Assembly (NCBI GenBank): GCA_041640655.1
Contig: JBEPZV010000001.1
Location: forward strand, 154,845-218,844
DNA length: 64,000 nt
From: a bacterium
Lineage (GTDB): Bacteria > Acidobacteriota > Blastocatellia > HR10
Direction: 5' to 3'
Shown here: positions 1,819 to 25,597 of the stretch, piece by piece
How positions within the stretch are numbered: the first letter of the stretch is position 1
Layout of the letters: each line of letters opens with the position of its first letter
Notes under the pieces: model-generated
What the model saw: only the letters and a program-made list of their open reading frames with translations
What the model was told of the DNA's origin: nothing
The model's database searches: none
Position numbers and translations under genes: made by a program

Positions 1819-1832
1819 GCAGGGGCGCGCCC

Positions 1833-2735: not shown

Positions 2736-2738
2736 CCT

Positions 2739-6233: not shown

Positions 6234-6302
6234 CGTGGGCGCGCCCGTCCCGAATCGCGAGACGGGACGCCGTGAGAGAATCCGCATGAGGAGGTGAGGG
6301 CC

Positions 6303-7508
6303 ATGGTCGCGCACCGTTCGGAGAAGAACGTCCCCCTCGACGGGGGATTGAATTTCGACCTCGGCAAGGAGAAGGAGCTGCTGCGACAGAATATCCGCGC
6401 GTTCGTCGAACGCGAGTGTCCGCGCGAGTACGTGCGCGAGCTGGATGAGCGGGAGGAATATCCGGAGCGCATCTGGCAGAAGCTCGCCGAATACGGGTTT
6501 CTGCAACTCCCCGTTCCGGAATCCTACGGGGGAATCGGGGGGGATATCGTGGATCTGGCCATCGTCACCGAGGAGCTGGCGCGACGCAGCGGGGCCATCG
6601 CCCTGACGTTCTGGATGTCCGCATGCTTCGGCGCCATGACGCTGAATCTGGTGGGGACCGAGGAGCAGAAGCGGCGGTATCTGCCCCTGCTCGCCGAGGG
6701 GAAGATCAAGTTCGCTATCTCCCTGACCGAGCCCGATGGTGGGACTGACGTGGCCGGAGCCATGAAGACGCGCGCGGTCGAGGATGGCGACGGATACGTG
6801 ATCACGGGACAGAAGGTGTGGACGACGGCGGCTCACGTCTCCGATTACCTGATCGTCTTCGCGCGCACAAACGAGAACGTCGCGAAGCGGGTGGATGGCA
6901 TCTCGGCCTTCCTCGTGGACCGGCGCACGCCGGGCATCACGCTGCGGAGGTTGGAGAAGATCGGTATCCGCGCCACGCCATCCTTCGAGGTCTTCTACGA
7001 TCAGGTGCGCGTCCCGCGGGAGAATCTGCTCGGAGAGCGGGATAAGGGGCTCTATCAGTTGTTCGGCATGCTCAACGAGGAGCGCATCCTCACGGCCGCC
7101 ATGTGCGTGGGCGAAGCTCAAGGGGCCTTCGAGGACGCGCTCGCGTACGCCAAGCAGCGGCAGGCCTTCGGCAAGCCGATCGGCCAATTTCAAGCCATTC
7201 AGCACAAGCTCTCGTGGATGTACACGAAGCTGGAGCTGGCGCGGTTGATCACCTACAAGGCGGCCTGGCTGCAATCGCAGGGACGAGACTGCGCCCTCGA
7301 GGCCAATATGGCGAAGCTCGTGGCGGCCAACTTCGGTTTCGAGATCGCCGACATGGGGATGCAGATTCTCGGCGGATACTGCTACAGCCGCGAATACGAT
7401 ATGCAGCGCTACTGGCGCGACGTGCGGCTGCATCGCGTCGGCCCGATCTCCGACGAGATGGTGCTGAATTTCATCGGAGAGCGCCTGGGCTTGCCGCGCA
7501 GCTATTGA
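6303..7508 (+). CDS. acyl-CoA dehydrogenase
   Basis: Full ACAD architecture, 400 aa; ATG at 6303 after GGAGGTGAGGG. Confidence 0.85.
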   Translation: MVAHRSEKNVPLDGGLNFDLGKEKELLRQNIRAFVERECPREYVRELDEREEYPERIWQKLAEYGFLQLPVPESYGGIGGDIVDLAIVTEELARRSGAIALTFWMSACFGAMTLNLVGTEEQKRRYLPLLAEGKIKFAISLTEPDGGTDVAGAMKTRAVEDGDGYVITGQKVWTTAAHVSDYLIVFARTNENVAKRVDGISAFLVDRRTPGITLRRLEKIGIRATPSFEVFYDQVRVPRENLLGERDKGLYQLFGMLNEERILTAAMCVGEAQGAFEDALAYAKQRQAFGKPIGQFQAIQHKLSWMYTKLELARLITYKAAWLQSQGRDCALEANMAKLVAANFGFEIADMGMQILGGYCYSREYDMQRYWRDVRLHRVGPISDEMVLNFIGERLGLPRSY

Positions 7509-7521
7509 TGCGGGGGAGGCG

Positions 7522-8346
7522 ATGCTCTCGCTCGAGGGGAAGGTCGCCATCGTGACCGGATCGGGACGCGGGATCGGACGCGCCACGGTCCTGACCCTGG
7601 CGGCGCTCGGCGCCCGCGTCGTCATCAATGATGTGGACGAGGAGCCGGCGCGCGAGACCGAAGCCCTCGTGCGCCAGCGGGGCGGACACGCGGTCGTCCT
7701 GATCGGGAGCGTCGCGCGCTCGGACGTGGCTCCGGCGCTTGTGCGCGCGGCCCTCACGCACTTCGGAGAGCTCGATATCCTCGTCAATAACGCCGGAGTC
7801 ACCGCCGATGCCATGCTCCACCGGATGACCGACGAACAATACGACCGCGTCATGGACGTCGTGCTGCGCGGCACGTTCTACGGCATGCGCGCGGCGGCGG
7901 CTTATTTCCGGGAGGCCTTCCGACAGGACCAGCAGCGCGGCGCGCGCGTGCACCGCAAGATCATCAACGTCAGCTCGATCGCCGGTATTCACGGGGCCGT
8001 CGGCAACGCCAACTACGCCGCGGCCAAGGCCGGAGTGATCGGCTTGACCAAGGCCGCCGCCCGCGAGCTGGCGCCCTTTCTGGTCAACGTGAACGCGGTC
8101 GCCCCCGGCTTCATCGAAACCCGTTTGACCGCTGCGCGCGACGCGACCGCCTCACCCGAGCTTGGCCTTCCCCCATCGGTGCGCGAGCGCATCCTGCAAC
8201 AGATGCCTTTCGGGCGTCCCGGATATCCGGAGGATGTGGCCGCGGCCATCGCGTTCCTGGCCTCTCCGCATGCCGATTTCATCACCGGACAGGTCCTGCA
8301 GATTGATGGCGGATTGGAGTTCATCAATCCCGTCTCCGGGACATAA
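7522..8346 (+). CDS. SDR family oxidoreductase (3-oxoacyl-ACP reductase-like)
   Basis: TGSGRGIGRA glycine motif, NNAG, catalytic YAAAK. Confidence 0.85.
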   Translation: MLSLEGKVAIVTGSGRGIGRATVLTLAALGARVVINDVDEEPARETEALVRQRGGHAVVLIGSVARSDVAPALVRAALTHFGELDILVNNAGVTADAMLHRMTDEQYDRVMDVVLRGTFYGMRAAAAYFREAFRQDQQRGARVHRKIINVSSIAGIHGAVGNANYAAAKAGVIGLTKAAARELAPFLVNVNAVAPGFIETRLTAARDATASPELGLPPSVRERILQQMPFGRPGYPEDVAAAIAFLASPHADFITGQVLQIDGGLEFINPVSGT

Positions 8347-8883: not shown

Positions 8884-10260
8884 ATGGCGTCGGGGGAGCA
8901 CCGATCCGAGGCGTACTTCGAACCGCAGTGGGAGTTGATGCCGCGCGAACAGCTCGAGGCCGTGCGGCTGCAGAAGTTGCACCGGCAACTCCGCTACGCG
9001 TACGAGGCGTCGGCCTTCTACCGGGAGAAGTTTCATCAGGCGGGGGCGCGCCCCCAGGACATCCGCACGCTCGAGGATCTCCGCCGGTTGCCGATCTTCA
9101 TCACGCCGGAGATTCATCGGGAGAGCCAGGAGCAGTCGCTGCGCGAGGAGGGACATCCCTTCGGGATGTTCCTCTGCGCGCCCCCGGAGCAGGTCATCGC
9201 CGTGGCGGCGACCTCGGGGACCACGGGAGAGCCCACCTTCTACGCCTTCACCCGACAAGATGTGGAGGTGACCAACCGCCTCTGGGCGCGCGCCTTCTGG
9301 CGCGCGGGGATCAGACCGGGCGATACGGTGATGCACGCCTTCGGCTTGAGCATGTTCCTGGCCGGAGTCCCCGTCGTCCGCGCCCTGGAATGGATGGGCG
9401 CGCGCCCCATCCCCTGCGGGGCCGAGGCCGGAAGCGAGCGCTTGCTGAAGCTCATCCGGTGGACGCGCCCGCGCGCGCTGCTGTGCACGCCCTCATACGC
9501 CGAGTATCTGATCGAGGTCGCCCCCAAGGTCCTCGGCTGCGACGTCGGCGATCTGGGCATCGAGATCATCTGCTGCGCGGGCGAGCCGGGAGCCGGATTG
9601 CCGGAGGTTCGCCGCAAGATTCAGGACGCCTACGGCGCGCGCCTCTACGATATGCTCGGGGGCGCTCATGGGATCATGAACGTCTCCTGCGAGGCCTCCG
9701 AATACCAGGGGATGCATGTCCTCGGCGATGACTTCTCCGTCTCCGACGACCTCGTGGATCCGGAGACGAAGGAGCCCATCCCCCTCACAGAGGGAGCCAT
9801 CGGCGAGCGGGTGAAGACGGCACTGCAGTGGGAGGCGCAGCCGCCGATCCGATACTCCGTCGGGGACATCTATCAGGTGTTCACCGAGCCGTGCCCCTGC
9901 GGGCGACCGGGACCGCGGATCAAGGTGCTCGGGCGCGTGGATGATCTGCTGATCGTCAAGGGCGTCAAGGTGTACCCGGCGGCCGTGAAGAACCTCGTGG
10001 AATCGTTCGGCCCACGCACGACCGGAGAGATGCGCATCGTGCTCGAGGCACCGGGACCACGGGTGACGCCCCCGCTGCGGCTGCGCGTCGAATATCGCGC
10101 TGGTCTGGAGGGCGAACAGATCGAGCGCCTCAAGGCGGAGATCGCCGAGGCTATGCACCACCGATTGCGCGTGCGCCCGGAGATCGAGATGGTCCCCGAA
10201 GGGACGCTCCCGCGCACGGCCCATAAGACGACGCTCATCGAACGACGATACGCCAGATGA
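8884..10260 (+). CDS. phenylacetate-CoA ligase-like adenylate-forming enzyme (PaaK/F390-synthetase family)
   Basis: AMP-binding motif SSGTTGEPT and PaaK-like overall organisation; start at internal ATG 8884. Confidence 0.7.
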   Translation: MASGEHRSEAYFEPQWELMPREQLEAVRLQKLHRQLRYAYEASAFYREKFHQAGARPQDIRTLEDLRRLPIFITPEIHRESQEQSLREEGHPFGMFLCAPPEQVIAVAATSGTTGEPTFYAFTRQDVEVTNRLWARAFWRAGIRPGDTVMHAFGLSMFLAGVPVVRALEWMGARPIPCGAEAGSERLLKLIRWTRPRALLCTPSYAEYLIEVAPKVLGCDVGDLGIEIICCAGEPGAGLPEVRRKIQDAYGARLYDMLGGAHGIMNVSCEASEYQGMHVLGDDFSVSDDLVDPETKEPIPLTEGAIGERVKTALQWEAQPPIRYSVGDIYQVFTEPCPCGRPGPRIKVLGRVDDLLIVKGVKVYPAAVKNLVESFGPRTTGEMRIVLEAPGPRVTPPLRLRVEYRAGLEGEQIERLKAEIAEAMHHRLRVRPEIEMVPEGTLPRTAHKTTLIERRYAR

Positions 10261-11924
10261 CGAACCGAACGGAGAAGATCCTCACGCTCGCCGAAGCCGT
10301 CCGGCAGATCGAGGACGGGAGCACGATCGCCCTCGGCGGTCTCTCCTACTTCAACGCGCCAATGGCGCTGGTGCGCGAATTGATCCGCCAGCGAAAGCGC
10401 GGGCTGACGGTGATCACCTCCGCCGTGACGGGCCTGCAGGCGGATCTGCTCATCGCCGCCGGAGGCGTGCGCCGGCTCATCAGCCCCTACGTGGGCCTGG
10501 AAGAGCTGGGCATGGCGCCGAATTTCCGGCGCGCGGCCGAGCGCGGGGAGATCGAGATCTGCGAGATCGGAGAGGCCTTCCTCGCCTTCGGTCTGAAGGC
10601 GGGAGCAGCCGGCGCGCCCTTCTTCCCCCTCCCTCGCGCGCTCGCCCGCACGGATCTCGTTCGGGTGAATACCGACTATCGCTTCACCCGAGACCCATTC
10701 ACCGGCGAGGAGGTCCTCTGCGTGCCGGCGCTTGTGCCCGATTGGGCGCTGCTGCACGCGCAGCAGAGCGATCCGTTCGGAAACGCGCGCCATCTCGGAT
10801 CGGCTTACATGGACCTGCTGTTGGCGCGCGCCGCGCGCCGCTGTATCGTGAGCTGCGATGAGGTGATCCCTCAAGAGGCCGTGCGCGCGGAGCCGCAGCG
10901 CACGACGCTGCCGGCAGTTCTCGTGGACCACGTCGTCCCGCTCTTCGGGAGCGCGCATCCGACGGCGAGCGAGCCGCTCTACGATGTGGACCGCGAGCAC
11001 CTGCGGCTCTATCTCGAACTCAGCCGGACGCCCGAAGGCGCGGCGCAATATCTCCAGGAATTCGTGCGCTCCTCCGACGAATCGGCGTATCTCCAGAAGG
11101 TGAGGGGGACTGCGCAGGTCTCCGCATCCCGAGTGGAATCGACCGCGTGCGAACCCGAGGAAGCGCCGCCATCGGTCGGAGAACTCTTGGCCATCATCTT
11201 CTCGCGCCTGGTCGAGGATGGGGACGTCGTGGGCGTCGGCACGGGATGTATGGAGGTCGCGGCCGGACTTCGATTGGCGCAGCTCACACACGCTCCCAAC
11301 CTCTCCTTCATCATGGGCGGAACGGGGGCGCTCAATCCGGACGCGGAGGAGTTGCCCCCCTCGGTGAACTCGGCGCGGGCGATCTCCCGAGCCGAAGCCG
11401 TGCTGCGGCTGGAGGATCTGTTCGATCTGGAGCTGAAGGGCGATCTCGATGTGATGTTCCTGAGCGGCTTGCAGATTGATCGGCACGGGAACGTGAACCT
11501 CGTGGGCATTGGTCCGTGGTCGGCACCGCGACGCCGAGGGCCGGGAAGCGTGGGATTGGAGCTGGCTCCCCGCGCGCGACGCCGCGTGGCCTTCTTCCGT
11601 CGGCACACGCGCCAGATCTTCGTCGAACGGGTTGATTTCATCTCGGCCCCGGGTTATGTTCCCCAGGTGATCGAAGGCGGAGCCTACTGGGTCATCACCG
11701 ATCTGGCCGTGATGGATTTCGATGACGAGGGGCGAATGCGGCTGGCCTCCCTCCATCCCGGCGCGACGGTGGAGCAGGTTCGAGAGCGAACGGGCTTTGA
11801 ACTCCTCATCCCGGCCTCGGTGCCGACGACGCCACCGCCGACGCACGAGGAGCTTCACTTGTTACGCACCCAGGTGGACCGCCGAGGGCTCCTGCGGGCG
11901 GGTCCCCGCATGGGGTGTCCGTGA
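10257..11924 (+). CDS. fused CoA-transferase (subunit A-like N-terminal half plus subunit B-like C-terminal half)
   Basis: N-terminal half is paralogous to 1833..2735 and C-terminal half to 2739..3536 (both end ...TGFELLIP...EEL..LR); 555 aa. Confidence 0.7.
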   Translation: MTNRTEKILTLAEAVRQIEDGSTIALGGLSYFNAPMALVRELIRQRKRGLTVITSAVTGLQADLLIAAGGVRRLISPYVGLEELGMAPNFRRAAERGEIEICEIGEAFLAFGLKAGAAGAPFFPLPRALARTDLVRVNTDYRFTRDPFTGEEVLCVPALVPDWALLHAQQSDPFGNARHLGSAYMDLLLARAARRCIVSCDEVIPQEAVRAEPQRTTLPAVLVDHVVPLFGSAHPTASEPLYDVDREHLRLYLELSRTPEGAAQYLQEFVRSSDESAYLQKVRGTAQVSASRVESTACEPEEAPPSVGELLAIIFSRLVEDGDVVGVGTGCMEVAAGLRLAQLTHAPNLSFIMGGTGALNPDAEELPPSVNSARAISRAEAVLRLEDLFDLELKGDLDVMFLSGLQIDRHGNVNLVGIGPWSAPRRRGPGSVGLELAPRARRRVAFFRRHTRQIFVERVDFISAPGYVPQVIEGGAYWVITDLAVMDFDDEGRMRLASLHPGATVEQVRERTGFELLIPASVPTTPPPTHEELHLLRTQVDRRGLLRAGPRMGCP

Positions 11925-11947: not shown

Positions 11948-13351
11948 ATGATCGGGATCACAGGATACGCCGTATATCTGCCGCGCCATCGGATCGAGCG
12001 GGAGAAGATCGCAGCCGCTCATGGGACGAAGCCGATTCTGGGAGGAGAGCGAACGGCCATCGGCTTCGATGAGGATGCGCTGACGCTGGCTCTGGAAGCC
12101 GTGCAGGCTCTGGAGCTCCCCGAATGCCGGGGGATATATTTCGCGTCCACGACGGCGCCCTACCTGGAGCGCATGAACGCGGCGCTTCTGGCCACGGCGT
12201 GCGATCTCCCGGAAGAGGTCGCCGTGGCCGACTTCGCGCATTCGCTGCGAGCGGGGACGGTGGCGCTCGCCGCGGCCCTGGATCGCGTAGCAGTCGGCGG
12301 CCAGGACCCCATCGTGGTGGTGGCCGCCGACGCGCGCGAAGCGCCACCGGAATCACCCGAAGAGCAATGGTTCGGCGATGGCGCGGCGGCCCTGGCCATC
12401 GGGCGGGGAGCAGAGGTCTTGGCCGCAGTGCGAGCGCGGACGAGCGTGACCGATGATTTCCTCGATTTCGTCCGGCGCGATAAGGATGAGCAGATCACGA
12501 GCTTCGCCTCCCGATTCACCCTGGAGGGGTATCGGCGAATCGTCGGTCGAGCCATCACGCAGGTCCTCGAACACAGTGGGGTGAATCCGTCGGAGATCGC
12601 GCGCGTCATCCTGCCACCTCTGGATCCGAAAGCCTCCATTCGCACGGCCATGGAGTTGGGATTTCGGGCCGATCAGGTTCAGGAGACGTTCCTCGACCGC
12701 GTGGGGATGATCGGATGCGCCATGCCGCTCTTCCTCTTGAGCGCGGCCTTGGAGACGGCACGGCCTGGCGATCTGATCCTCCTGGTGGGCTACGGGAGCG
12801 GCGCCGATGCCTTGCTCTTCGAGGTGACACCCGCTCTGGAGCGCTCCCGCAGATGTCCCTCGATCGCGGATCACTTGGAGGGCGGACTCCGATTCCCATC
12901 ATACGAATTGTTCCGGAAAGCCCGGGCCTACTTCCGACGCCACGACGACGGGCCGGTGGTGTCGAACATCTTCTATGAGAAGGAAGAGGTGCGCACGATT
13001 CGGCTCCGAGGGACCGAATGCGGAGAATGCGGGCTGCGACAGTTCCCGCCGACGGCCGTGTGTCAGCGCTGTCGGAGCACAGAGGGATTGCGAGAGGTGA
13101 AGCTCGGGCGGCGCGGAGCCGTGTTCACCTATACCGTGGATTGGCTGGCGACTTCGCCCATGCCGCCGACGATCCTGGCCGTCGTGGATGTGGAGGGGGG
13201 AGGACGGCTCTATCTGCAAATGACCGACGTCGAGCCATCGGCAGTGCGCATCGGCATGCCCGTGCGCGTGACGCTGCGACGGCTCGGAGCCGGTGGCGGT
13301 TTGTACCATTACTACTGGAAGTGCCGACCGGAGGGACGAAGCGATGGGTGA
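11948..13351 (+). CDS. HMG-CoA-synthase-like thiolase-fold protein fused to C-terminal DUF35 (Zn-ribbon/OB-fold) domain
   Basis: N-terminal ~340 aa resemble archaeal-type HMGCS/KAS-III fold (GITGYAVYLP...). C-terminal domain has the Cys4 ribbon CGECG...CQRC followed by an OB-fold-like region, as in DUF35 proteins. Confidence 0.6.
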   Translation: MIGITGYAVYLPRHRIEREKIAAAHGTKPILGGERTAIGFDEDALTLALEAVQALELPECRGIYFASTTAPYLERMNAALLATACDLPEEVAVADFAHSLRAGTVALAAALDRVAVGGQDPIVVVAADAREAPPESPEEQWFGDGAAALAIGRGAEVLAAVRARTSVTDDFLDFVRRDKDEQITSFASRFTLEGYRRIVGRAITQVLEHSGVNPSEIARVILPPLDPKASIRTAMELGFRADQVQETFLDRVGMIGCAMPLFLLSAALETARPGDLILLVGYGSGADALLFEVTPALERSRRCPSIADHLEGGLRFPSYELFRKARAYFRRHDDGPVVSNIFYEKEEVRTIRLRGTECGECGLRQFPPTAVCQRCRSTEGLREVKLGRRGAVFTYTVDWLATSPMPPTILAVVDVEGGGRLYLQMTDVEPSAVRIGMPVRVTLRRLGAGGGLYHYYWKCRPEGRSDG

Positions 13352-14507
13352 GAGCCTCAAGGACAGAGTGGCCATCATCGGGATCGGTTGCACGAAGTTC
13401 GGCGAGCTGCACGAGAAGAGCCTTCAAGACCTGATGGTCGAGGCGAGCTTCGCCGCTTACGCGGACGCGGGGATCGAGCCCGATCGCGTGGAAGCGGCGT
13501 GGCTGGGAACGTTCTCACCGGGTTTCGGGGGAGGGAAGGCGAGCGTCACCCTGGCCGACGCGCTGCGACTCTATGGCAAGCCGATCACCCGCGTGGAGAA
13601 CTACTGCGCCACGGGGACCGATGCCTTCCGAAACGCGTGCCTGGCCGTGGCCGCCGGCGTCTACGAAGTGGCCTTGGTCGTCGGAGCGGAGAAGTTGCGA
13701 GATCGGCCCGTGCGGGGATTGCAACGCGAGGGGACGCATCCGTACTTGGAAGCGGGCTCGACCCCACCGGGACTTTTCGCCCTGGCAGCGAATCGGTATT
13801 TCCATCGCTTCGGCGGGGATCGGCGGACGTTGGCCAAGGTCGCCGTCAAGAATCATCACAACGGAGCCCTCAATCCGAAAGCCCATTTTCAGATGGAGGT
13901 GACCGAGGAGCAGGTCCTCAACGCGCCGCTCATCGCCTATCCGTTCGGTCTGTATGACTGCTGCCCCACGACAGACGGAGCCGCGGCCGTCATCATCTGT
14001 CGGGCCGATCTGGCGCGGCAGTTTCGAGACGATCCGGTCTACGTGAAGGGCATCGGATTGGCCGTGGAGACGGGATGGCCTTTCTTCGATCCCACGTTCG
14101 AGTACATCGGGTTCCCGGCGACGACGGCGGCGGCGGCCGAAGCCTATCGCATGGCGGGAATCCGCCACCCGGCGCGGGAGATCTCCGTGGCCGAAGTGCA
14201 TGATTGTTTCACGTGGACCGAGATCGCCAATTATGAGGACCTGGGCTTCTGTCGGAAGGGCGAGGGGAGGTACTTCATCGAGGAGGGACGGAGCGCGCTC
14301 ACGGGCGATCTGCCCGTGAATCCGAGCGGCGGATTGAAATCGTTCGGCCATCCGATCGGAGCCAGCGGCGTGCGCATGCTCACGGAGATCGTCCTGCAGT
14401 TGCGCGGTCAAGCCGGAGCTCGCCAGGTGAAGAACGCCGAGCTGGGACTCGTGCATAATCTGGGCGGACCCGGCTCGGTCGCCTGCGTCGTCATTCTCGG
14501 ACGGTGA
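13344..14507 (+). CDS. SCP2/nsLTP-type thiolase
   Basis: Thiolase-like (CATGTDAFRNA; active-site Cys region; C-terminal NPSGG.KSFGHPIGASG). Start overlaps upstream stop (ATGGGTGA). Confidence 0.75.
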   Translation: MGESLKDRVAIIGIGCTKFGELHEKSLQDLMVEASFAAYADAGIEPDRVEAAWLGTFSPGFGGGKASVTLADALRLYGKPITRVENYCATGTDAFRNACLAVAAGVYEVALVVGAEKLRDRPVRGLQREGTHPYLEAGSTPPGLFALAANRYFHRFGGDRRTLAKVAVKNHHNGALNPKAHFQMEVTEEQVLNAPLIAYPFGLYDCCPTTDGAAAVIICRADLARQFRDDPVYVKGIGLAVETGWPFFDPTFEYIGFPATTAAAAEAYRMAGIRHPAREISVAEVHDCFTWTEIANYEDLGFCRKGEGRYFIEEGRSALTGDLPVNPSGGLKSFGHPIGASGVRMLTEIVLQLRGQAGARQVKNAELGLVHNLGGPGSVACVVILGR

Positions 14508-14552: not shown

Positions 14553-15404
14553 ATGCGTATCGTCGTCTGCCTGACGCAGATTCTCGATCCGGAGATGCCG
14601 CCGAGTGAATTTCGACTGGATCCGCAACGAAAGGCGGCCGCCGAGGGGATCGGACAGCTCGTCGTCAGCATCTTCGATGAGAACGCGCTCGAGGTGGCGC
14701 TGCAGGTGCGCGAGCGCATAGCCGAGCGCGAGGGAGCACCCCACGCGATCTCTCGATCGCGTGAGGACCCCGGCCCGGTGGAGATCGTCGCGCTCACCGT
14801 CGGTCCTCCTTCGGCCGCCGACGTCCTGCGGAAGGCGCTCAGTCTGCGCGCCGATCGCGCCATTTTGATCTCCAGCGAGGGATGGCCTCCGCTGGAAGGC
14901 GCCATCGTCGCCCGCCTTCTGGCCGCCGCCGTGAGACGGCTCCATCCGGTGGACCTCGTGCTCTGCGGGCGCGAGACGGGAGATTGGCATGGGGGACAGG
15001 TCGGCGCCTTCCTGGCCGAAGCGCTCGGATGGGCGAGCGTGAGCTTCGTCTCCCGCATCGAGGTGGAGGGGGAGACCTTCCTCATGCGACGCCAATCGGA
15101 CGAAGGATGGGAGATCGTGCGCGCGAGACGACCCGCCGTGGCGACGATCACCAACGATGAGACGAACGTCCCGCGCTTGCCGAAGGTCAGAGATACGATG
15201 CTGGCCGCCCGCGCGTCGCTCCCCGTGTGGACGATCCCGGAACTGGTCGAAGATCCGAGAGAGCTGTGGCAGGCGAATGCCCTGCAGGTGCGCGAGTTGT
15301 TCATTCCGAGCAGCTCGAAGGCGTGCGAGGTGATCGAGGGGGAGACGGTTCAGGAGAAAGCCGTTCGGCTTCTCCAGGCGCTGCGCCGACGACGGATTCT
15401 CTGA
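14553..15404 (+). CDS. etfB: electron transfer flavoprotein beta subunit, carrying an in-frame 38-nt palindromic-element insertion
   Basis: EtfB family sequence (MRIVVCLTQILDP...). An extra loop GAPHAISRSREDPGP coincides with the palindromic element at 14734..14771. Confidence 0.85.
   Translation: MRIVVCLTQILDPEMPPSEFRLDPQRKAAAEGIGQLVVSIFDENALEVALQVRERIAEREGAPHAISRSREDPGPVEIVALTVGPPSAADVLRKALSLRADRAILISSEGWPPLEGAIVARLLAAAVRRLHPVDLVLCGRETGDWHGGQVGAFLAEALGWASVSFVSRIEVEGETFLMRRQSDEGWEIVRARRPAVATITNDETNVPRLPKVRDTMLAARASLPVWTIPELVEDPRELWQANALQVRELFIPSSSKACEVIEGETVQEKAVRLLQALRRRRIL
14734..14771 (+). repeat. 38-nt palindromic element copy a (GAGCA-CCCCACGCGATC-TCTC-GATCGCGTGAGG-ACCCC), inside etfB
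   Basis: Matches the consensus GGGCA CCCCACGCGATC TCCG GATCGCGTGGGG ACCCC found in four other copies; 12-bp arms. Confidence 0.8.
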
Positions 15405-15424: not shown

Positions 15425-16420
15425 ATGCGCACCGTGATGGTTCTCCTGCCGACATCCCGCATCGAGCGGGCCGAGCGCGAGGCCATCGGCGCCGCGCGCG
15501 CGTTGTCGCGGGAATGGTCGGCGAACGTGCAGGTGGCCCTCATCGCCCCAACGGCGGAGGGAATCGAAGGCCTCCGAGGGAGGACGGAGGCCTCTGGAGA
15601 TGTGCGCCTGTGGATCGCCGCCCATCCGCAGCTGGCGGCGTATTCGCCCGAGCTGTATGTGAGCGCCAGCGAACAGCTCATCACACGCGCGCGACCGGAC
15701 GTGATTGTCTTCCCCAGTCGGACGATCCCGCTTGAGATCGCGCCGCGTCTCGCATACCGGATCGGGGCGGCGATGGCGACCGATGTCATCGAGCTGCGCG
15801 CCGAGGATGAGACCGTCCGCATCACGAAGCCCGTCTACGGCGGCAAGGCGCACGCGGTGTTGATGGCGCAACGGTTCCCCCTCGTCCTCTGCGTGCGCCC
15901 GCGCGCGTTCGATCCGTTTGAGGGGGAGCTGCGCGACGATGCGGCGATGCGCGTCCAGGTGACGCTCGATCCCTCGTCCGTCCGCACGCAGCTCGTCCGA
16001 CGGATTCAAGAGGACGCCGCGGCGGGAGTGTCGCTCGAAGAGGCGCGCGTCATCGTCAGCGGCGGGCGCGGCCTCGGCGGACCCGAGGGCTTCCGATTGC
16101 TCGAAGAATTGGCGCGGTGGCTCGGCGGCGCCGTCGGCGCTTCGCGCGCGGCGTGCGACGCCGGGTGGGTGCCGGCCAGCTGGCAAATCGGGCAAACGGG
16201 AAAGAAGGTCGCCCCCGATCTCTATATCGCCGTCGGGATCTCCGGAGCCAGCCAGCACATCGTCGGCATCTCCGGGGCCAAGTGCATCGTCGCCATCAAC
16301 ACGGACCCCAAAGCGCCGATCTTCACAGTGGCGGATCTCGGGATCGTCGGCGATTATCGAGCGGTCGTCCCCGCTCTGATCGCGGAGGTCAAACGGATGC
16401 GTGAGGAAGCAGAGGGATGA
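15425..16420 (+). CDS. etfA: electron transfer flavoprotein alpha subunit
   Basis: EtfA FAD-binding C-terminal motifs ([22 protein letters not shown]). Confidence 0.85.
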
Positions 16421-16458: not shown

Positions 16459-17256
16459 ATGAGTGAGCCGACGGTGCAGCTTGTCGTGGACGATGGCGTG
16501 GCCACGGTGACGCTCAACCGGCCCGAGGCGTTGAACGCTATTGACGCGACGTTGGCGGCCGAGTTGCGCGAGGTCTTTCGAACGTTGGGAGCGCGAGAGG
16601 ATGTTCGGGCCGTGATCCTGACGGGAGCGGGACGGGCGTTCTCGGCGGGTGCGGATTTGAAGTACCTTCACCGGAGATTGGAGGAGGGCGCTTCGGCCGA
16701 ACAGTTGCTGGACGAGTTGCTCGGGCCGTTGAACGATACAATTCGACTCATTCGGGGCATGCCGAAGATCATCATCGCGGCCATTCACGGGGTCGCCAGC
16801 GGTGGCGGCTGTAACCTCGCGCTGGCGTGCGATTATCGGGTGGCGGCTGTGGGGACGCGGTTCAACCAGGCGTTCGTGCGACTCGGGATCGCTCCGGATT
16901 GCGGAGGGACGTTCATTGTGCCGCGCCTGATCGGCTGGACGAAGGCGTTCGAATGGATGGTGAGTGGAGCGTTGATCGAGGCTGAGGAGGCGGCCGCCTG
17001 GGGACTCGTGCATCGCGTCGTCCCCGAGGATCGCGTGCTCGAAGAGGCGCGCGCCTTCGCGCGCTCCGTGTGCGAAGGGCCGACACGAGCGATCGTGACC
17101 ATCAAACACTTGCTCGCGATGAGCCTCGGAGCCTCCCTGGATGAGCAGCTGGAGCGGGAGCGGCAGCTCGTGGGCTTGCTCGCCGGCACCGAGGATTTCC
17201 GCGAAGGCGTGCGCGCCTTCCTCGAGAAGCGCCCCCCGCGCTTCTCCGGGCGATGA
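16459..17256 (+). CDS. enoyl-CoA hydratase/isomerase (crotonase family)
   Basis: Crotonase motifs (LNRPEALNA, GAGRAFSAGADL, GGGCNLALACD). Confidence 0.85.
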   Translation: MSEPTVQLVVDDGVATVTLNRPEALNAIDATLAAELREVFRTLGAREDVRAVILTGAGRAFSAGADLKYLHRRLEEGASAEQLLDELLGPLNDTIRLIRGMPKIIIAAIHGVASGGGCNLALACDYRVAAVGTRFNQAFVRLGIAPDCGGTFIVPRLIGWTKAFEWMVSGALIEAEEAAAWGLVHRVVPEDRVLEEARAFARSVCEGPTRAIVTIKHLLAMSLGASLDEQLERERQLVGLLAGTEDFREGVRAFLEKRPPRFSGR

Positions 17257-17276
17257 CGCGTCGCCCCGATCCTCCC

Positions 17277-17314
17277 GGGGTCCCCACGCGATCCGGAGAT
17301 CGCGTGGGGTGCCC
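17277..17314 (-). repeat. 38-nt palindromic element copy b (intergenic, reverse orientation)
   Basis: GGGGTCCCCACGCGATCCGGAGATCGCGTGGGGTGCCC is the exact reverse complement of copy d; perfect 12-bp arms with a 4-nt spacer. Confidence 0.85.
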
Positions 17315-17335
17315 GAACTCCCCGAACGGAGGACT

Positions 17336-18292
17336 ATGTCGAGCGCATTCGAATTCGTTCCCCCCGGTCTCGATCTCGCCGATGATGACATCCATCCCAT
17401 CGGTCCGGAACCCTGGTGGCGCGAGGCCTGGTACTTCGAATTCTTCGACCCGGCTTCGCGCGTTCAGTTCCAGGTCTATCAAGGCATCTTCCCGAACGCC
17501 GGTCGAGGGGATCTGACCTGCTACGTGTTCGTGGAGGGACGCCTGCGATACGAGCTGATGAAGATGGACTTCGCGATTCCGTCCGACATCGGGCGGGAGC
17601 GCTTGTGCTTCGGCCCCTTGAAATTAGAGATGCTCGAGCCCTTCGTCCGATGGCGCTTGCGCTACGATAGCCCGAGGATGCAGTGCGATCTCTCCTTCCG
17701 CGCGCTCCATCGCGCCTTCAGTTGGGCGGAGACCCGGCTCTGGATGGAAGACGCTCCGGTCGGGCAGCAGAGCCGCCATTTCGATCAGGTGGGATGGTAC
17801 GAGGGATGGCTGCATCTGGATGACGAGCAGCTCTCCATCTCGGCGATCGGGATGCGCGATCGGATGTGGGGGTGGGGAGGGCGCGCTCTCTGGCGCGGGT
17901 ATCTGGTCCTGTGGGCGCCCTTCTCCGAAGCCTTCGTCGTCAATGTGGCGGCCATGAACTTCGCCGACGGTCGACGCCACCTCTGCGGATATCTCCATCG
18001 CGAGGGCGAACGCACCTATCTCGACTCCGCGCGCCTGACCATCACCTGGAGCGAGCAGCGATGGAAGTCGGTCGAACGTGTGCACGCGCAGCTCACCGAT
18101 CGGCGCGGGCGGTCGCTCGCGCTCTCGGCCCGACCGCTCGGCATCATTGATACATCGCATCATTGGCCGCACCGATTCGATCACCTCCTCTTCTCCATCG
18201 GCGAATATGAGTGCCAGGGGATGACCGGCTACGGATGCCTGACGTGGAGCTTCGTCACGGCGGAGGAGAAGATGCGCGCCATCGAGTTCTGA
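17336..18292 (+). CDS. hypothetical protein, possibly CrtC/AttH-like (lipocalin-like hydratase family)
   Basis: ATG 17336 after GGAGG; Trp-rich N-terminal motif PEPWWREAWYFEFFD resembles the EWWY signature of CrtC/AttH family proteins. Weak by-eye assignment. Confidence 0.35.
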   Translation: MSSAFEFVPPGLDLADDDIHPIGPEPWWREAWYFEFFDPASRVQFQVYQGIFPNAGRGDLTCYVFVEGRLRYELMKMDFAIPSDIGRERLCFGPLKLEMLEPFVRWRLRYDSPRMQCDLSFRALHRAFSWAETRLWMEDAPVGQQSRHFDQVGWYEGWLHLDDEQLSISAIGMRDRMWGWGGRALWRGYLVLWAPFSEAFVVNVAAMNFADGRRHLCGYLHREGERTYLDSARLTITWSEQRWKSVERVHAQLTDRRGRSLALSARPLGIIDTSHHWPHRFDHLLFSIGEYECQGMTGYGCLTWSFVTAEEKMRAIEF

Positions 18293-18316
18293 GAGGCGAA
18301 GCTCGGAGACGTGGCC

Positions 18317-19528
18317 ATGAAGTCGACCGACCTCACCGGGATCCTCCCGCGATCTCTCGATCGCGTGGCGTGCCTGAACGCGCTGCTCCATCGGTTCGGG
18401 GAGAGCGTCCGTCACTTCTTCCGCGCCGAGCAACGCTCGCACCTGTTCTCCCCCCTCTTTCATCTCCCCGGGCGATTGATCGCGGGGAGCTATTGCTACT
18501 ACGAGCACCTGGTGCCCTTGTTGCGACAGGTGGCGCGACAGATGCCGCCGGAAGCCCTCGCGCATCGGGTGAAGCGACTCGGGGCGCGACCCAACGAGAT
18601 CAACGCCAATTCTCTGCTGCTCGGGTATCTGAACGGGCGGGAGCAGCGGCGGCTGCTCGGCCATCGCGTGGCAGATGATCCGGAGGAGATCGCCTTCCTC
18701 CTGGACTTCTGGGCGCGCTTCCTCGCCGCCTATCGCGCCGATGGTCGGCTCTTGCCGGAGGAGAGCGGATTCGTTCTGCCGGTGCTCGAAGCGCGAGCGC
18801 TCGAAGTGCTCCTGCCGGAACTCCATCCGGAACCGGAGCACGCACGACGCCAGCGAGGTCCCCATGTGATCGGGAGATCGCGTGGGGTGCCCGAGCGGAT
18901 GCGTCGCGCCCTGGCCACGCTCGAGCTCTTCGCCTTCGTCTTCAACGGCGAGGCGCGCGTCGGCCTCTTTCACCACGGGCCCTATCCCCGACCCGACGGC
19001 ACGTGCGTGCTCGTCAAGGAGCTGGTGGGGTTGCAGGACGATTTCTATTCCTGGGCGGAGGAGTCCGTGCGACTCCCCGTGGCCCATGTGGCCTGCCTCT
19101 TGCTCGTGAAGGACGTCGAAGTGAGAATCGGTTTATTCGGATCGCTCCGGACGGAGCCCCGGGAGTACGCTCAGAACGTCGTGGCCTGTGGCCTCTTCAC
19201 CGCCACGGGGGAAGACGTTCGTCCTCTCACGCTCGAGGAGCTGGAGGAGATCGCCGCGCACGCGGCTGAGGCGCAGATGCGCCTCTATCGCCACTTCCTC
19301 ACATGGGATGATCGGCGTCGCATCGCCTATGGAGCGGAGCTCTACGGGAACCTGCTGCGCGTCTTCGGCGATCAGGCGGGACTCGGGCCGGATTTCCATC
19401 GGGAGATCCGAGAGCGCTTCCGGGAGAGCACGGACCGACATCTACAAGCCATACTCGCTGGCGAGCCTCCGGCCATCCTGCGGCATATCGCGGAGACGGC
19501 GGGAGAGATCTACAGCCCCCTCGCATGA
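18317..19528 (+). CDS. conserved hypothetical protein (paralog P1), carries an in-frame palindromic-element insertion
   Basis: About 400 aa, tandem paralog of 19541..20770 (shared blocks ATLEL.AF, GLF.HGPY, LYGNLL/LYLFAN). Insertion RGPHVIGRSRGVP maps to element copy c. Confidence 0.5.
   Translation: MKSTDLTGILPRSLDRVACLNALLHRFGESVRHFFRAEQRSHLFSPLFHLPGRLIAGSYCYYEHLVPLLRQVARQMPPEALAHRVKRLGARPNEINANSLLLGYLNGREQRRLLGHRVADDPEEIAFLLDFWARFLAAYRADGRLLPEESGFVLPVLEARALEVLLPELHPEPEHARRQRGPHVIGRSRGVPERMRRALATLELFAFVFNGEARVGLFHHGPYPRPDGTCVLVKELVGLQDDFYSWAEESVRLPVAHVACLLLVKDVEVRIGLFGSLRTEPREYAQNVVACGLFTATGEDVRPLTLEELEEIAAHAAEAQMRLYRHFLTWDDRRRIAYGAELYGNLLRVFGDQAGLGPDFHREIRERFRESTDRHLQAILAGEPPAILRHIAETAGEIYSPLA
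18855..18892 (-). repeat. 38-nt palindromic element copy c (inside P1 coding sequence, slightly degenerate)
   Basis: GAGGTCCCCATGTGATCGGGAGATCGCGTGGGGTGCCC; left arm carries 2 substitutions. Confidence 0.8.
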
Positions 19529-19540
19529 AGACCGGGTCGG

Positions 19541-20770
19541 ATGAGGCGCATGACCCTCGAGGAGATCAATCGCCACATCCGGCTGATCGCGGAACAGCTG
19601 AAGGCGTTCATGCGCTCGGAGCAACGCGCGCTCCTGCGATCGGCGCTTTTTGACGTCCCCCGCCGCTCCTCGCTCGGATGGGAATGCCTCTACCGCACGG
19701 CCTATCCGCTGCTGGCGGACCTCACGTCGGTCGTCACGCCTGAGGAGATCGGACGCCGGATGAAGCGCGTGTGCGCGCGCCCGAATTTCCTCACGCTGAG
19801 CATTCTGATCTGCTGCTACCTCGGGGGACGCCAGCAGCGGATCCTCGATCTCGGCGTGCGACCGGGAGAGCCCTTCCCCGAGGATGATCCCGAGCAGATC
19901 GGCTTCGTCCTCGACTTCTGGTGGCGCGTCTGCCGCACCTATCGCGAGGATGGTGCCCTCTTGCCGGAAGAGCGAGGAGGGACGATGCCGATCCTGCCGG
20001 CCGGAACGATCGCTCGACTCCGCGCGCTGCTGGTCGAGACGGATCCGCTCACGGTGAAACGCCTTCGTCGTCTGGCGGCGACGCTGGAGCTGTACGCGTT
20101 CATCCTGCACGGGGAGCAACGCGATGGCCTCTTCGCGCACGGCCCGTACGCGCTGCAGGAGCGGGCGGGCACCCCACGCGATCTCCGGATCGCGTGGGGA
20201 CCCCGGGAGGTGCTCGTCATTCGCGAGTTCACCGACCTGCAGAACAGTTATCTCCCCTGGGCGCAGACGCGCGCGCGGAACCTCTACCCGAATCTGGCGC
20301 TCGCGCTCCAGCTTCGGGACGTGACGGCTCAGTTCGATCTCTTCGGAGGGGTGCGATTCGATCCCCCGGAATATGCTGATCGCGTTCGCGCCGTCGCGTT
20401 GGTGACCGTGGCCGACAATGGGGAGATCCGAGCCGTCCCTTTCGAGGAGATCGAGGAGATCGAACGCCGCGCGGCCGACGCCCAGATGGAGCTGTATCAA
20501 CGCGCGCTCTGCTGGTCGCCGCGCTTCAAGATCGAATACGGCCTCTACCTGTTCGCGAACCACGTGAAGGCGTTCTTCGATCTGGCGGGGGTGGAGGCGG
20601 GCGAGCGCATTCGTCGGGCGTTCGAAGAGGCCGCCGCTCCGTTCCTGCAGCGGTTGCTCGCCGATGCCGAACCACCATTCATCTGGCGGTTCATGGCGAC
20701 GACAGAAGGCGATTTCTTCTATCCGATCTCCGCGCAGATGCCCGAACGTGAGGGAGGAGAGGGGCGATGA
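19541..20770 (+). CDS. conserved hypothetical protein (paralog P2), carries an in-frame palindromic-element insertion
   Basis: Paralog of P1. Insertion GTPRDLRIAWGPRE (copy d) lies at a site where P1 has no insertion. Confidence 0.5.
   Translation: MRRMTLEEINRHIRLIAEQLKAFMRSEQRALLRSALFDVPRRSSLGWECLYRTAYPLLADLTSVVTPEEIGRRMKRVCARPNFLTLSILICCYLGGRQQRILDLGVRPGEPFPEDDPEQIGFVLDFWWRVCRTYREDGALLPEERGGTMPILPAGTIARLRALLVETDPLTVKRLRRLAATLELYAFILHGEQRDGLFAHGPYALQERAGTPRDLRIAWGPREVLVIREFTDLQNSYLPWAQTRARNLYPNLALALQLRDVTAQFDLFGGVRFDPPEYADRVRAVALVTVADNGEIRAVPFEEIEEIERRAADAQMELYQRALCWSPRFKIEYGLYLFANHVKAFFDLAGVEAGERIRRAFEEAAAPFLQRLLADAEPPFIWRFMATTEGDFFYPISAQMPEREGGEGR
20167..20204 (+). repeat. 38-nt palindromic element copy d (inside P2 coding sequence)
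   Basis: GGGCACCCCACGCGATCTCCGGATCGCGTGGGGACCCC; perfect 12-bp inverted arms. Confidence 0.85.
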
Positions 20771-22923
20771 GAGAGGAGAGCCTCTTGATGGTTCACCAGC
20801 AGGAGCCGCTTGGTCAGAGCGAGCCCGCTCGGGAATACTCCTGCGCTGTGGATACGGGGGGGACGTTCACCGACTGCGTCGTCGGCGATTCGGAGGGGAA
20901 TCTGGTCTTCGCCAAGAGCCCCTCGACGCCGCACGATTTTTCGGCGGGCTTCTTCGCCGCACTCGCCCTGGCGGCGGAGCAGCTTGGGCTCACGCTCACC
21001 GAACTGATGGCGCGCACGCGACGGCTCATGCACGGGACGACGGTGGGCACCAACGCCATGGTGGAGCTCAAAGGGGCGCGCGTGGGGTTGATCACGACGC
21101 GGGGGCATGGGGATGCCATCCTCATCATGCGCTCGGTGGGCCGCTCGGCGGGATTGCCGATCGAGCGGTTGCTGCATGTCTCCCGTCATCAGAAACCCCG
21201 GCCCCTCGTCCCCCGCCACCTCATTCGCGAGGTGAGCGAACGCGTGGACTGGCGCGGCGAGGTCATCGTGCCTCTGAATCGAGAAGAGGCGCGTCGCGCC
21301 ATCGAGGAGTTGCTGGAGCAGAAGGTCGAGGCCATCGCCATCGCCTTCCTCTGGGGATTCGTGAATCCCATCCACGAGCGCGAGGTTCGCCGCATGGTCG
21401 AGGAGATAGCGCCCGACCTCTTCGTCACCTGCGCGCACGAGTTGATCGCGAAGCCGGGCGAGTATGAGCGGACGGCGGCGACCGTGATCAATTGTTTCAT
21501 CGGGCCGAAGACGACGCAGTACATCCGCCGGGTGGAAGAGCGGGCTCGCGCGCTCGGCTGCACGGCTCCCCTCCTCATCATGCAAGCATCAGGTGGCGTC
21601 GCGCCGGCCCGGGAGATCCTGCGCGCGCCGTTGTTCACCATCGGCTCGGGGCCGGCAGGGGGCTTGATGGGATGCCAGTTCCTGGCCGAGACCCTCGGAC
21701 ATCCCCACGTCATCGCCACGGACATGGGGGGGACGAGCTTCGACGTCGGCCTCATCGTGGACGGGATGCCGCTGTCGGCGTCCGAGACCACACTCGAGCA
21801 GTACACCTTCTTCATGCCTCGCTTGGACATCCTCTCCATCGGCGCGGGCGGAGGATCCATCATCTGGATCGATGAGCGGAGCGGAACCCTGAAAGTCGGT
21901 CCGGAATCAGCGGGGGCAGACCCGGGACCCGCCTGCTACGGACGCGGAGGCACACGACCCACGGTGACCGATGCGGACCTCATCCTCGGCTATTACAATC
22001 CGGAGTTCTTCCTGGGGGGGAGGCTGACGCTCAATCCTGAAGCGGCTCACCACGCGATGCGCACGGTCGCCGACCCCCTCGGGTTGGACATCACCGAGGC
22101 GGCCGACGGAGCCACGCGGATCGTTGAGATGCAGATGGCCGATCTCATCCGGCAGATGACCATCCAGCGGGGATACGATCCGCGCGATTTCGTCATCTAC
22201 GCCTACGGCGGAGCCGCCGGCGCCCATGCGGCTGTCTACGCGCGGGAGTTGGGATGCCGCACGGTCGTCATCCCGCGCGGAGTCCTGGCCGCCACCTGGT
22301 CGGCCTTCGGGATCCTCTCGACGGATGTCCAGCACGTCTTCGAGAGATCGGAGCTGCTCATCGCACCCCTGGATGCGACGCGCGTCACGGAGATCTTCCT
22401 CGAGCTGGAAGAGCGAGCCCGCCGACAATTGTGCGAGGAGGGGGTGGCCGAGGATCAGATCCTCCTGCGCCGCTTCGCGGAGATGAAGTTCCGACTGCAG
22501 ATCCATCGCGTCGAGATCCCCGTCCCCGGTGGGATTCTGACCGATCAGGACATGCGCGATCTGGAGCAGGCATTCGTACAAAAGTACGAGACGCTCTATG
22601 GACGCGGATCGGCATTCACGGCGGCGGGCATGGAGATCGGCCTGCTGCGCGTGGTGGCGCTCGGGCGCATCGCTCGCGGGCCGTTGAAGCAGCTCTCCAC
22701 CGAGCACCGCAGCGGATGGACGCCCGTCGGACGGCGCCAGGTCTACTGGCGGGAACTCGGACGACGGATTCAAACGCCCATCTTCTCCGGGGAAGGGATC
22801 CCCCCTGAGACATCTCTGGAGGGTCCGGCGATCGTCGAACTGCCCGTGACGACCATCGTCGTCCGCCCGGGCGACCGCCTCACCACCGATGCATATGGGA
22901 ATTTCATCCTCACCCTCCCCTGA
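20767..22923 (+). CDS. hydantoinase A / acetone-carboxylase beta-like subunit (HyuA family)
   Basis: 718 aa; N-terminal AVDTGGTFTDCVV and ASKHD-superfamily ATPase motifs of hydantoinase A/oxoprolinase. Confidence 0.8.
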   Translation: MREESLLMVHQQEPLGQSEPAREYSCAVDTGGTFTDCVVGDSEGNLVFAKSPSTPHDFSAGFFAALALAAEQLGLTLTELMARTRRLMHGTTVGTNAMVELKGARVGLITTRGHGDAILIMRSVGRSAGLPIERLLHVSRHQKPRPLVPRHLIREVSERVDWRGEVIVPLNREEARRAIEELLEQKVEAIAIAFLWGFVNPIHEREVRRMVEEIAPDLFVTCAHELIAKPGEYERTAATVINCFIGPKTTQYIRRVEERARALGCTAPLLIMQASGGVAPAREILRAPLFTIGSGPAGGLMGCQFLAETLGHPHVIATDMGGTSFDVGLIVDGMPLSASETTLEQYTFFMPRLDILSIGAGGGSIIWIDERSGTLKVGPESAGADPGPACYGRGGTRPTVTDADLILGYYNPEFFLGGRLTLNPEAAHHAMRTVADPLGLDITEAADGATRIVEMQMADLIRQMTIQRGYDPRDFVIYAYGGAAGAHAAVYARELGCRTVVIPRGVLAATWSAFGILSTDVQHVFERSELLIAPLDATRVTEIFLELEERARRQLCEEGVAEDQILLRRFAEMKFRLQIHRVEIPVPGGILTDQDMRDLEQAFVQKYETLYGRGSAFTAAGMEIGLLRVVALGRIARGPLKQLSTEHRSGWTPVGRRQVYWRELGRRIQTPIFSGEGIPPETSLEGPAIVELPVTTIVVRPGDRLTTDAYGNFILTLP

Positions 22924-22955
22924 GCAGGGGGCTATCCCTTCGGAGGAGGACGACT

Positions 22956-25252: not shown

Positions 25253-25597
25253 ATGAGGAAAATCGGGGAAGGGGAGCCGACGTCCGGACACGGCGCCGTC
25301 GGCATCTTGCGCAAAGTCGAAACCTTGGAGGACGTCCTGCGGTTGATGGAGATCGATCTCTCGGAGACGATCGTCTTCACTCCCTCGGCCTCGGTGACGG
25401 CCATCACGCCGATCCTTCCCAAGATCCGAGGGCTCATCTGCGCTTCCGGAGGCTTCACGTCGCATCTGGCGATCGTCGCCCGGGAGTTCGATCTGCCGTG
25501 CCTGATGGGAAGCCACCTCGAGGAGGTGAGCGCCCTCGAAGGACGTCGCGTGCGATTCACGGCCCAAGGGGAGATCTTTCTCGAGGACGATGTCTGA
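25253..25597 (+). CDS. PEP-utilizing enzyme mobile (phosphohistidine) domain protein, stand-alone
   Basis: GGFTSHLAIVAREFDLPCL matches the phosphohistidine swivel-domain signature; ATG 25253 after AAGGAGA. Confidence 0.7.
   Translation: MRKIGEGEPTSGHGAVGILRKVETLEDVLRLMEIDLSETIVFTPSASVTAITPILPKIRGLICASGGFTSHLAIVAREFDLPCLMGSHLEEVSALEGRRVRFTAQGEIFLEDDV

Follow-up and report, generated by a model that had tools for sequence, protein, structure and literature searches.

A fused HMG-CoA synthase-like/DUF35 protein that has lost its catalytic tetrad, a probable scaffold for an SCP2-type thiolase in a catabolic operon of the Blastocatellia

Introduction

Whether a synthase-like protein that carries its own zinc-ribbon and OB-fold module acts as an enzyme in its own right, or as a support for the thiolase encoded directly after it, is the question raised by two overlapping genes in a 64,000-nucleotide (nt) stretch of DNA from an acidobacterium (GenBank assembly GCA_041640655.1, contig JBEPZV010000001.1, positions 154,845 to 218,844 of the forward strand); this whole stretch is termed the window, and all positions are counted from its first letter. 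Gene A (11948..13351, + strand) encodes a thiolase-fold domain resembling 3-hydroxy-3-methylglutaryl-CoA (HMG-CoA) synthase (HMGS), fused to DUF35, and gene B (13344..14507, + strand) encodes an SCP2-type thiolase. A first-pass annotation, made from the DNA sequence without database searches, had likened the pair to the three-component archaeal complex that channels acetoacetyl-CoA into HMG-CoA, and had proposed a C–C bond-cleaving or -forming role on the product of the carboxylase. The best reading of the analysis reported here is that gene A probably encodes, in a single chain, a non-catalytic scaffold of the PhlA/PhlB kind, holding an active thiolase that cleaves 3-oxoacyl-CoA; on that reading the pair joins a kind of tetrad-less fused complex whose first bacterial example was described in 2026 (PMC12960953). 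The new element is genomic context: the fused family is large, is mostly paired with a thiolase, and in many instances is located within catabolic gene clusters.

Gene layout and domain architecture

The open reading frame of gene A and its translation (467 amino acids (aa)) extend from an ATG at 11948, preceded by GAGAGAGGA, to a TGA at 13349-13351, and gene B (387 aa) extends from an ATG at 13344, with GGAGG situated 7 nt 5' of it, to position 14507. The stop of gene A and the start of gene B share 8 nt (13344..13351, + strand), read from the sequence as ATGGGTGA; the same overlap is present in a second Blastocatellia locus (L002), and overlaps of 4 nt are found in the Novosphingobium and Rhodococcus homologues. 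Such a stop/start arrangement would be expected to couple translation of the two chains. The initial observation of a DUF35-fused, HMGS-like gene overlapping an SCP2-type thiolase gene is correct in both its coordinates and its 8-nt overlap, and lies far beyond chance.

Profile searches suggested at first pass recovered the expected families in both proteins. Gene A matches ACP_syn_III_C (aa 207-286, 8e-08), zf-ChsH2 (PF12172; aa 349-379, 3.5e-07) and OB_ChsH2_C (PF01796; aa 383-443, 2e-10), all of which exceed the Pfam gathering thresholds, and gene B matches Thiolase_N and Thiolase_C_1. Together with an AlphaFold2 (AF2) model of gene A (predicted local distance difference test score (pLDDT) 85.6, predicted template-modelling score (pTM) 0.87), these matches delimit a fused protein of four parts: an HMGS/KAS-III-like thiolase-fold domain (aa 1-331; 11948..12940), supported by alignments, NCBIfam and Foldseek; a poorly conserved linker (aa 332-348; 12941..12991), disordered at aa 336-346, where pLDDT is below 50; a rubredoxin-like zinc ribbon (aa 349-380; 12992..13087); and a DUF35 OB fold (aa 381-461; 13088..13330), all on the + strand. 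The CGECG...CQRC motif of the ribbon corresponds to C358, C361, C372 and C375, four cysteines that are invariant in 120 of 120 homologues and in 144-145 of 145 cluster representatives. In the Protein Data Bank (PDB), the OB-fold part matches a chain of the archaeal complex (6esq_E, 1.4e-12), the DUF35 protein ChsH2 (6ok1_B) and PhlB (5m3k_B). A frameshift or assembly artefact was considered as the origin of the fusion and rejected, because the full-length fused architecture is shared by hundreds of homologues, of ~465-490 aa, and a protein identical to that of gene A (P0001) is present in a public collection.

Loss of the catalytic tetrad in the HMGS-like domain

Among solved structures, the HMGS-like domain most closely resembles the complex-forming archaeal HMGS, both in sequence (6esq_I, 9e-24) and in a Foldseek comparison of the AF2 model (6esq_I, TM 0.85, followed by PhlA and MucA). 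The best N-terminal match in NCBIfam is likewise the archaeal HMGS model PRK04262, at 168.7 bits, under its cutoff of 244. Columns of the Glu-Cys-His-Asn tetrad were set by HMMER alignment to the Methanothermococcus thermolithotrophicus HMGS of 6ESQ, with PhlA also aligned, and all four residues are replaced in gene A (+ strand throughout): the Glu of the archaeal SESHPY motif by T68 in STTAPY (12149-12151), the Cys of FACKAGT by L100 in HSLRAGT (12245-12247), the His of FHQPNG by P223 in LPPLDP (12614-12616) and the Asn of GNTYSG by M254 in GMIGCA (12707-12709). These losses extend across the family: of the 120 best homologues, 116 carry Thr and none carries Glu at the Glu column, 110 carry Leu, Val or Ile and none carries Cys at the Cys column, and a single one has His at the His column, with Glu, Cys or His found at the three columns in none of 145 representatives of clusters at 50% identity. 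Fused members from Novosphingobium, Rhodococcus, Azoarcus, Mycobacterium avium and a haloarchaeon are similarly devoid of the Glu and the Cys.

Because the whole tetrad has been lost, the HMGS-like domain cannot be a condensing enzyme; as judged from its residues, this half of gene A is a predicted pseudoenzyme. Two coupled enzymes, as the archaeal analogy implied, are incompatible with a domain that would form no C–C bond of its own, and what survives of the earlier interpretation is its inventory of parts and its general chemistry, with the HMGS-like domain as an enzyme set aside. The annotation had named two observations that would count against it, of which one, an N-terminal domain without any catalytic residue, was made here, and the other, failure to detect DUF35 by profile search, was not, DUF35 being readily found.

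Mean identity to the query across homologues is 35% in the dead domain, 34-44% in the DUF35 part and 15% in the linker, and the domain, being conserved about as well as DUF35, is therefore maintained by purifying selection, with D41, D43, D86, D95, R101, R130, E139, D144 and R176 as invariant charged residues. A decarboxylase role of the KS-Q/CLF type was tried and rejected for this domain: decarboxylation would call for the His and the Asn, both of them lost here, and the former nucleophile is replaced by Leu, Val or Ile, not by Gln.

Automatic annotation widely labels the fused genes of this family 'HMG-CoA synthase', '3-oxoacyl-ACP synthase III' or 'OB-fold protein', names that a description as a tetrad-less thiolase scaffold would correct; as scaffolds, they would not be genes of mevalonate or fatty-acid synthesis in Acidobacteriota, Binatia, Chloroflexota, Desulfobacterota and other phyla.

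The adjoining SCP2-type thiolase

Gene B presents the opposite picture of residue conservation. It matches Thiolase_C_1 (1.7e-45) and Thiolase_N (6e-21) in Pfam and passes the cutoff of NCBIfam PRK06157 (497 bits, cutoff 403), and its closest PDB relatives are 4yzo_A (1.5e-70), the archaeal thiolase 6esq_A (2.8e-69) and BbsB (7pxp_C, 5e-55). Cys88 (13605-13607), His286 of an HDCF motif (14199-14201) and His336 of a GHP motif (14349-14351), all on the + strand, align with their counterparts in 6esq_A, and Cys, HDxF and GHx-type motifs are kept in 69 of 73 thiolases that adjoin fused genes. Since Cys88, H286DCF and GH336 are all retained, gene B is of the thiolase type, not of the aldolase or acyltransferase type, and its product looks active on the strength of these motifs; matches to PhlC (6e-34), Sal (2.6e-34) and Ltp2 (2.5e-31) are far weaker than those to true thiolases.

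Relationship to characterised complexes

A recent study (PMC12960953; Nat Commun 2026;17:2196) determined the structure of MucABC and surveyed 1,030 bacterial HMGS/ACAT/DUF35 loci, describing from Pseudomonas fluorescens a complex of a fused HMGS-DUF35 protein without the Glu-Cys-His-Asn tetrad and an ACAT that retains Cys, HDxF and GHx. This complex cleaved acetoacetyl-CoA, made neither acetoacetyl-CoA nor HMG-CoA, and was nearly inactivated by H294Y; its authors view it as an intermediate in evolution that no pathway has so far recruited (PMC12960953). The window pair shares its fusion, its missing tetrad, its thiolase motifs and its lack of polyketide synthase (PKS) or non-ribosomal peptide synthetase (NRPS) neighbours, but comes from an uncultivated, Blastocatellia-like member of the Acidobacteriota and, in common with many of its homologues, lies inside a catabolic operon. 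The repeated occurrence of the family in catabolic clusters qualifies the published view of fused complexes as unrecruited intermediates.

Other solved assemblies each share part of this arrangement. The archaeal complex 6ESQ, for which statements here draw on PMC12960953 and PMC12329534, is the top match, in sequence and in fold, for each of the three parts, with Cys, HDCF and GH motifs of the same type, but consists of three separate chains with an active HMGS in the anabolic mevalonate pathway, whereas the window encodes two chains with a dead HMGS in a catabolic setting. In PhlACB (5M3K) and MucABC (9VBO), a tetrad-less and non-catalytic HMGS-like subunit is bridged by DUF35 to a thiolase-like catalytic subunit; PhlC and MucB, however, lack HDxF and perform Friedel-Crafts chemistry in biosynthetic clusters, whereas the window pair keeps HDCF, has DUF35 fused, and is flanked by beta-oxidation-type genes. 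The benzoylsuccinyl-CoA thiolase BbsAB (7PXP) and pairs of the IpfDE type are catabolic, DUF35-dependent SCP2-type thiolases with HDxF that cleave bulky 3-oxoacyl-CoA, differing in that no HMGS-like domain is attached to their DUF35 proteins, BbsA and IpfE, which stand alone, and the window pair fails both corresponding NCBIfam models (BbsA, 28 bits against a cutoff of 250; BbsB, 197.3 against 750).

An earlier trace of the family may be present in the edc oestrogen-degradation cluster of Novosphingobium tardaugens, where an unexplained 'HMG-CoA synthase' beside a thiolase was suspected of being non-condensing (PMC7793797). These genes (EGO55_13555/13550) adjoin each other, as in the window, and belong to a cluster for beta-oxidation of steroid rings, and the EGO55 protein is ~34% identical to the window protein, although the remaining gene set of the operon differs. 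A literature search found no later paper explaining this 'HMG-CoA synthase'.

Distribution and genomic context of the fused family

An initial homologue search with gene A returned 297 matches, and a search of 1.84 billion representatives delineated 440 clusters at E <=1e-30, the best 150 of which are nearly all full-length fusions of ~445-495 aa, with few shorter fragments. Species-representative genomes hold at least 565 fused-gene loci, carried mostly by metagenome-assembled genomes (MAGs) of Acidobacteriota, Binatia, Desulfobacterota, Chloroflexota and Methylomirabilota. Genomic context was surveyed by tblastn with the window proteins as queries against 88 fetched loci: a thiolase lies directly downstream on the same strand in 60 of the 76 loci that extend at least 1.5 kb downstream (~80%), and 70 non-redundant loci include 56 with a thiolase, and 36 with an acyl-CoA dehydrogenase (ACAD), enoyl-CoA hydratase (ECH) or short-chain dehydrogenase/reductase (SDR) homologue, within 5 kb.

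Several loci in better-known organisms point to the kind of substrate involved. The related Novosphingobium ES2-1 plasmid carries a pair of the A-B type, with a fused homologue of 467 aa, in an oestrogen-type cluster, and Azoarcus KH32C carries the pair beside beta-oxidation genes. On plasmids of Rhodococcus qingshengii (L090, 5103-11558) and M. avium (L093, 3040-10548), a CoA ligase and the alpha and beta subunits of a ring-hydroxylating dioxygenase are followed by the fused gene and the thiolase, a layout whose logic we liken to that of ibuprofen ipfABDEF, the fused protein standing in for a stand-alone DUF35. Taken together, these contexts suggest that the substrate is an acyl-CoA of a bulky, branched or ring-derived kind, and catabolic clusters such as the oestrogen-type one point to cleavage of bulky 3-oxoacyl-CoAs. 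In a subgroup of loci from Binatia and Deltaproteobacteria, the fused gene is immediately preceded by genes for a MaoC-type hydratase and an HpcH/citrate-lyase-beta-like lyase. Homologue searches yielded no Pseudomonas among the top matches listed for gene A, nor among the best 120 for the Azoarcus KH32C protein, where Aromatoleum, Azoarcus and Variovorax are listed.

Proposed mechanism

The preferred model is a two-chain HMGS/thiolase/DUF35 assembly in which the thiolase would be the sole enzyme. Gene A would supply a pseudo-HMGS of the PhlA/MucA type, a flexible linker and a DUF35 module of the PhlB/BbsA/ChsH2 type, and would use the DUF35 module to bind the dimeric thiolase; as in every solved relative, DUF35 would clamp the SCP2-type thiolase and help to shape its active-site cleft. 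Substrate would first be activated with CoA by the adjacent CoA-transferase or the PaaK-like ligase, then converted to a 3-oxoacyl-CoA by the ACAD with its electron transfer flavoprotein (ETF), the enoyl-CoA hydratase and the SDR of the operon, and finally split by gene B, in a CoA-dependent thiolysis supported by Cys88 together with the histidines of HDCF and GHP. Synthesis of the two chains would be coupled through the stop/start overlap.

Several considerations weigh against this model. Physical association of the A and B chains is expected from homology, and the direction of the reaction in vivo is likewise surmised, in that sequence cannot separate thiolysis from condensation. The window family is equated with the published P. 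fluorescens complex on the basis of shared features, so that the correspondence is best regarded as probable. About 14 of the 70 non-redundant loci have no thiolase within 5 kb (including L006, L008, L015, L024, L026 and L029), such that the fused protein may sometimes use a distant partner or act alone, and the invariant charged residues of the dead domain could signify ligand binding rather than pure scaffolding. That the substrate of the window pair itself is bulky or ring-derived is presumed from its relatives and their contexts.

Alternative interpretations

A possible, although improbable, extension is that in this lineage the module ends a ketone-carboxylation route, in which a hydantoinase-like pair, HydA and HydB-gamma (20767-25220, + strand), would form a beta-keto acid that is then activated with CoA by the ligase or CoA-transferase and cleaved by the thiolase. 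Such a route would run along the lines established for acetone and acetophenone metabolism. HydA and HydB lie in the same strand run as the module, HydB has a fused C-terminal acetone-carboxylase-gamma domain (PF08882, aa 674-751; assigned by Pfam), a PaaK-like ligase and a CoA-transferase stand directly upstream of gene A, locus L002 of the Blastocatellia keeps the entire arrangement, and cleavage of acetoacetyl-CoA is the activity reported for the published fused complex (PMC12960953). The Hyd genes are, however, separated from the module by 6 kb and six genes, and are present only in the 81%-identical locus L002, being absent from a 50%-identity locus that keeps the rest of the core and, within 5 kb, from the other surveyed loci. 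Since they are missing at 50% identity, the carboxylase link is lineage-specific and not a property of the family, and carboxylase activity is itself putative, all scores of the Hyd proteins falling under the cutoffs of the NCBIfam acetophenone-carboxylase and caprolactamase models. Gene context thus weakens the earlier idea that the module acts on a carboxylase product. A more elaborate version has the pseudo-HMGS setting specificity, not persisting as an evolutionary leftover, with the scaffolded thiolase as the last step of an undescribed route, after ketone carboxylation by HydA/HydB-gamma and CoA activation, and is slightly less probable again; equally tentative are its particulars, namely ATP-dependent conversion of an alicyclic or isoprenoid ketone to the beta-keto acid, activation by the Gct/Ipd-type CoA-transferase or the PaaK-like ligase, and splitting of a bulky beta-ketoacyl-CoA in a thiolase cleft that the dead HMGS domain and DUF35 would shape.

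Unlikely, on present evidence, is that the dead HMGS-like domain binds acyl-CoA or CoA, as a shared or allosteric specificity site, or has acquired a new activity. Purifying selection on the domain, invariant charged residues that include R101 beside the former nucleophile position, the contribution of the archaeal HMGS to a shared CoA site in its complex (PMC12329534), and the family members without a nearby thiolase would all fit such a role; the usual Leu, Val or Ile at the nucleophile position, by contrast, is what a filled pocket would show, structural motifs inherited from HMGS and FabH (DED, GDGA, WRR) account for many of the invariant residues, and no activity beyond support of the thiolase is reported for PhlA, MucA or the fused P. 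fluorescens protein (PMC12960953).

A Friedel-Crafts C-acyltransferase of the PhlACB/MucABC type, transferring acetyl onto a small phenolic or tetramic-acid acceptor, is very improbable. The HMGS-like unit is tetrad-less in the same manner as PhlA and MucA, which stand just behind 6esq in the Foldseek comparison, and sequence matches extend to PhlA (7e-21), PhlB (2e-4) and PhlC, but gene B retains, as H286DCF, the HDxF motif that PhlC and MucB have lost (PMC12960953), and is much nearer to the archaeal thiolase (3e-69) and BbsB than to PhlC. The annotated genes of the operon (421 to 26468), which include two without a family match, contain no PKS or NRPS, and the neighbours are of the beta-oxidation type.

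Even less credible is a retro-aldolase–DUF35 complex of the Ltp2/Sal type cleaving a 3-hydroxyacyl-CoA. The C-terminal part of gene A is matched by DUF35 proteins that partner steroid aldolases (6ok1_B, 1e-5; 9myr_B, 1e-5), Ltp2 and Sal match gene B, and some homologues are located in steroid-type clusters; the aldolases, however, have YDHF or YDCY with Gly at the nucleophile position (PMC12329534), where gene B has H286DCF with Cys88, and its similarity to Ltp2 and Sal falls far below that to true thiolases.

The archaeal-type channelling complex, in which thiolase and HMGS-like domain would both be catalytic and perform two coupled C–C steps, draws on the chains of 6esq, among which each of the three parts has its nearest solved relative, and on the archaeal HMGS model as the best N-terminal match, and is the most remote of these alternatives given the replacement of the tetrad by T68, L100, P223 and M254, the family-wide absence of Glu and Cys, the sub-cutoff HMGS model score, and the observation that neither an archaeal quadruple tetrad mutant nor the fused P. 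fluorescens complex makes HMG-CoA (PMC12960953).

The surrounding operon

Gene A and gene B belong to an operon whose genes are, in order, an FAD oxidase, a split CoA-transferase, a BaiCD/FadH-like old yellow enzyme, a TetR regulator, an ACAD, an SDR, a VOC protein, a PaaK-like ligase, a fused CoA-transferase, A, B, ETF beta, ETF alpha, ECH, a DUF7065/7064 protein, two paralogues of no recognised family, HydA and HydB-gamma. The catabolic character of the operon proposed at first pass is borne out by these genes, and a C–C cleaving role is plausible. The whole operon is syntenic with a Blastocatellia MAG locus (L002), in which the fusion is 81% identical, and the 50%-identity locus keeps a core that opens with the FAD oxidase and closes with the thiolase, with the ligase, ETF, ECH and hydantoinase-like genes missing.

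Genes retained with the module include the ACAD (6294-7508, + strand) and the SDR (7522-8346, + strand), both assigned by Pfam and NCBIfam and kept in L002-L005, and the fused family-I CoA-transferase of the Gct/IpdAB/AibAB type directly upstream of gene A (10257..11924, + strand; Pfam CoA_trans; PDB matches 1poi, 5mzw and 6co6), which is likewise syntenic in L002-L005 and stays next to the module at 50% identity. ETF beta (14553-15404), ETF alpha (15425-16420) and ECH (16459-17256), all on the + strand and assigned by Pfam, accompany the module in L002 and L003 only. The split CoA-transferase (A and B subunits, 1830-3536, + strand), also of the Gct/IpdAB/AibAB type, is a paralogue of the fused enzyme, at 38% identity, and either may act as a transferase, a ring hydrolase or a decarboxylase. 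Assignment to IpdAB-like steroid ring opening was not made, as both match GctAB, IpdAB and AibAB about equally.

Downstream, the listed reading frame of the DUF7065/7064 (Rv3169-family) protein (17141-18292, + strand) overlaps the ECH gene by 116 nt, and its homologue in L002 has 318 aa against 383 aa here, such that the true start is probably further downstream. Two tandem paralogues of ~405 aa each (18311-19528 and 19541-20770, + strand; 37% identical to each other) have no sequence match in Pfam, NCBIfam or the PDB; they are conserved in L002 between the DUF7065/7064 gene and hydantoinase A, and could serve the hydantoinase/carboxylase-like enzyme as accessory proteins or as subunits that have escaped recognition. 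The Hyd pair is followed by a protein with PEP-utilizers_C as its only domain (25590-26468, + strand). Further along the window, from ~28000 to 56000, GC content is 0.49-0.61, against about 0.65 in the operon region, and this segment may represent foreign or otherwise distinct DNA.

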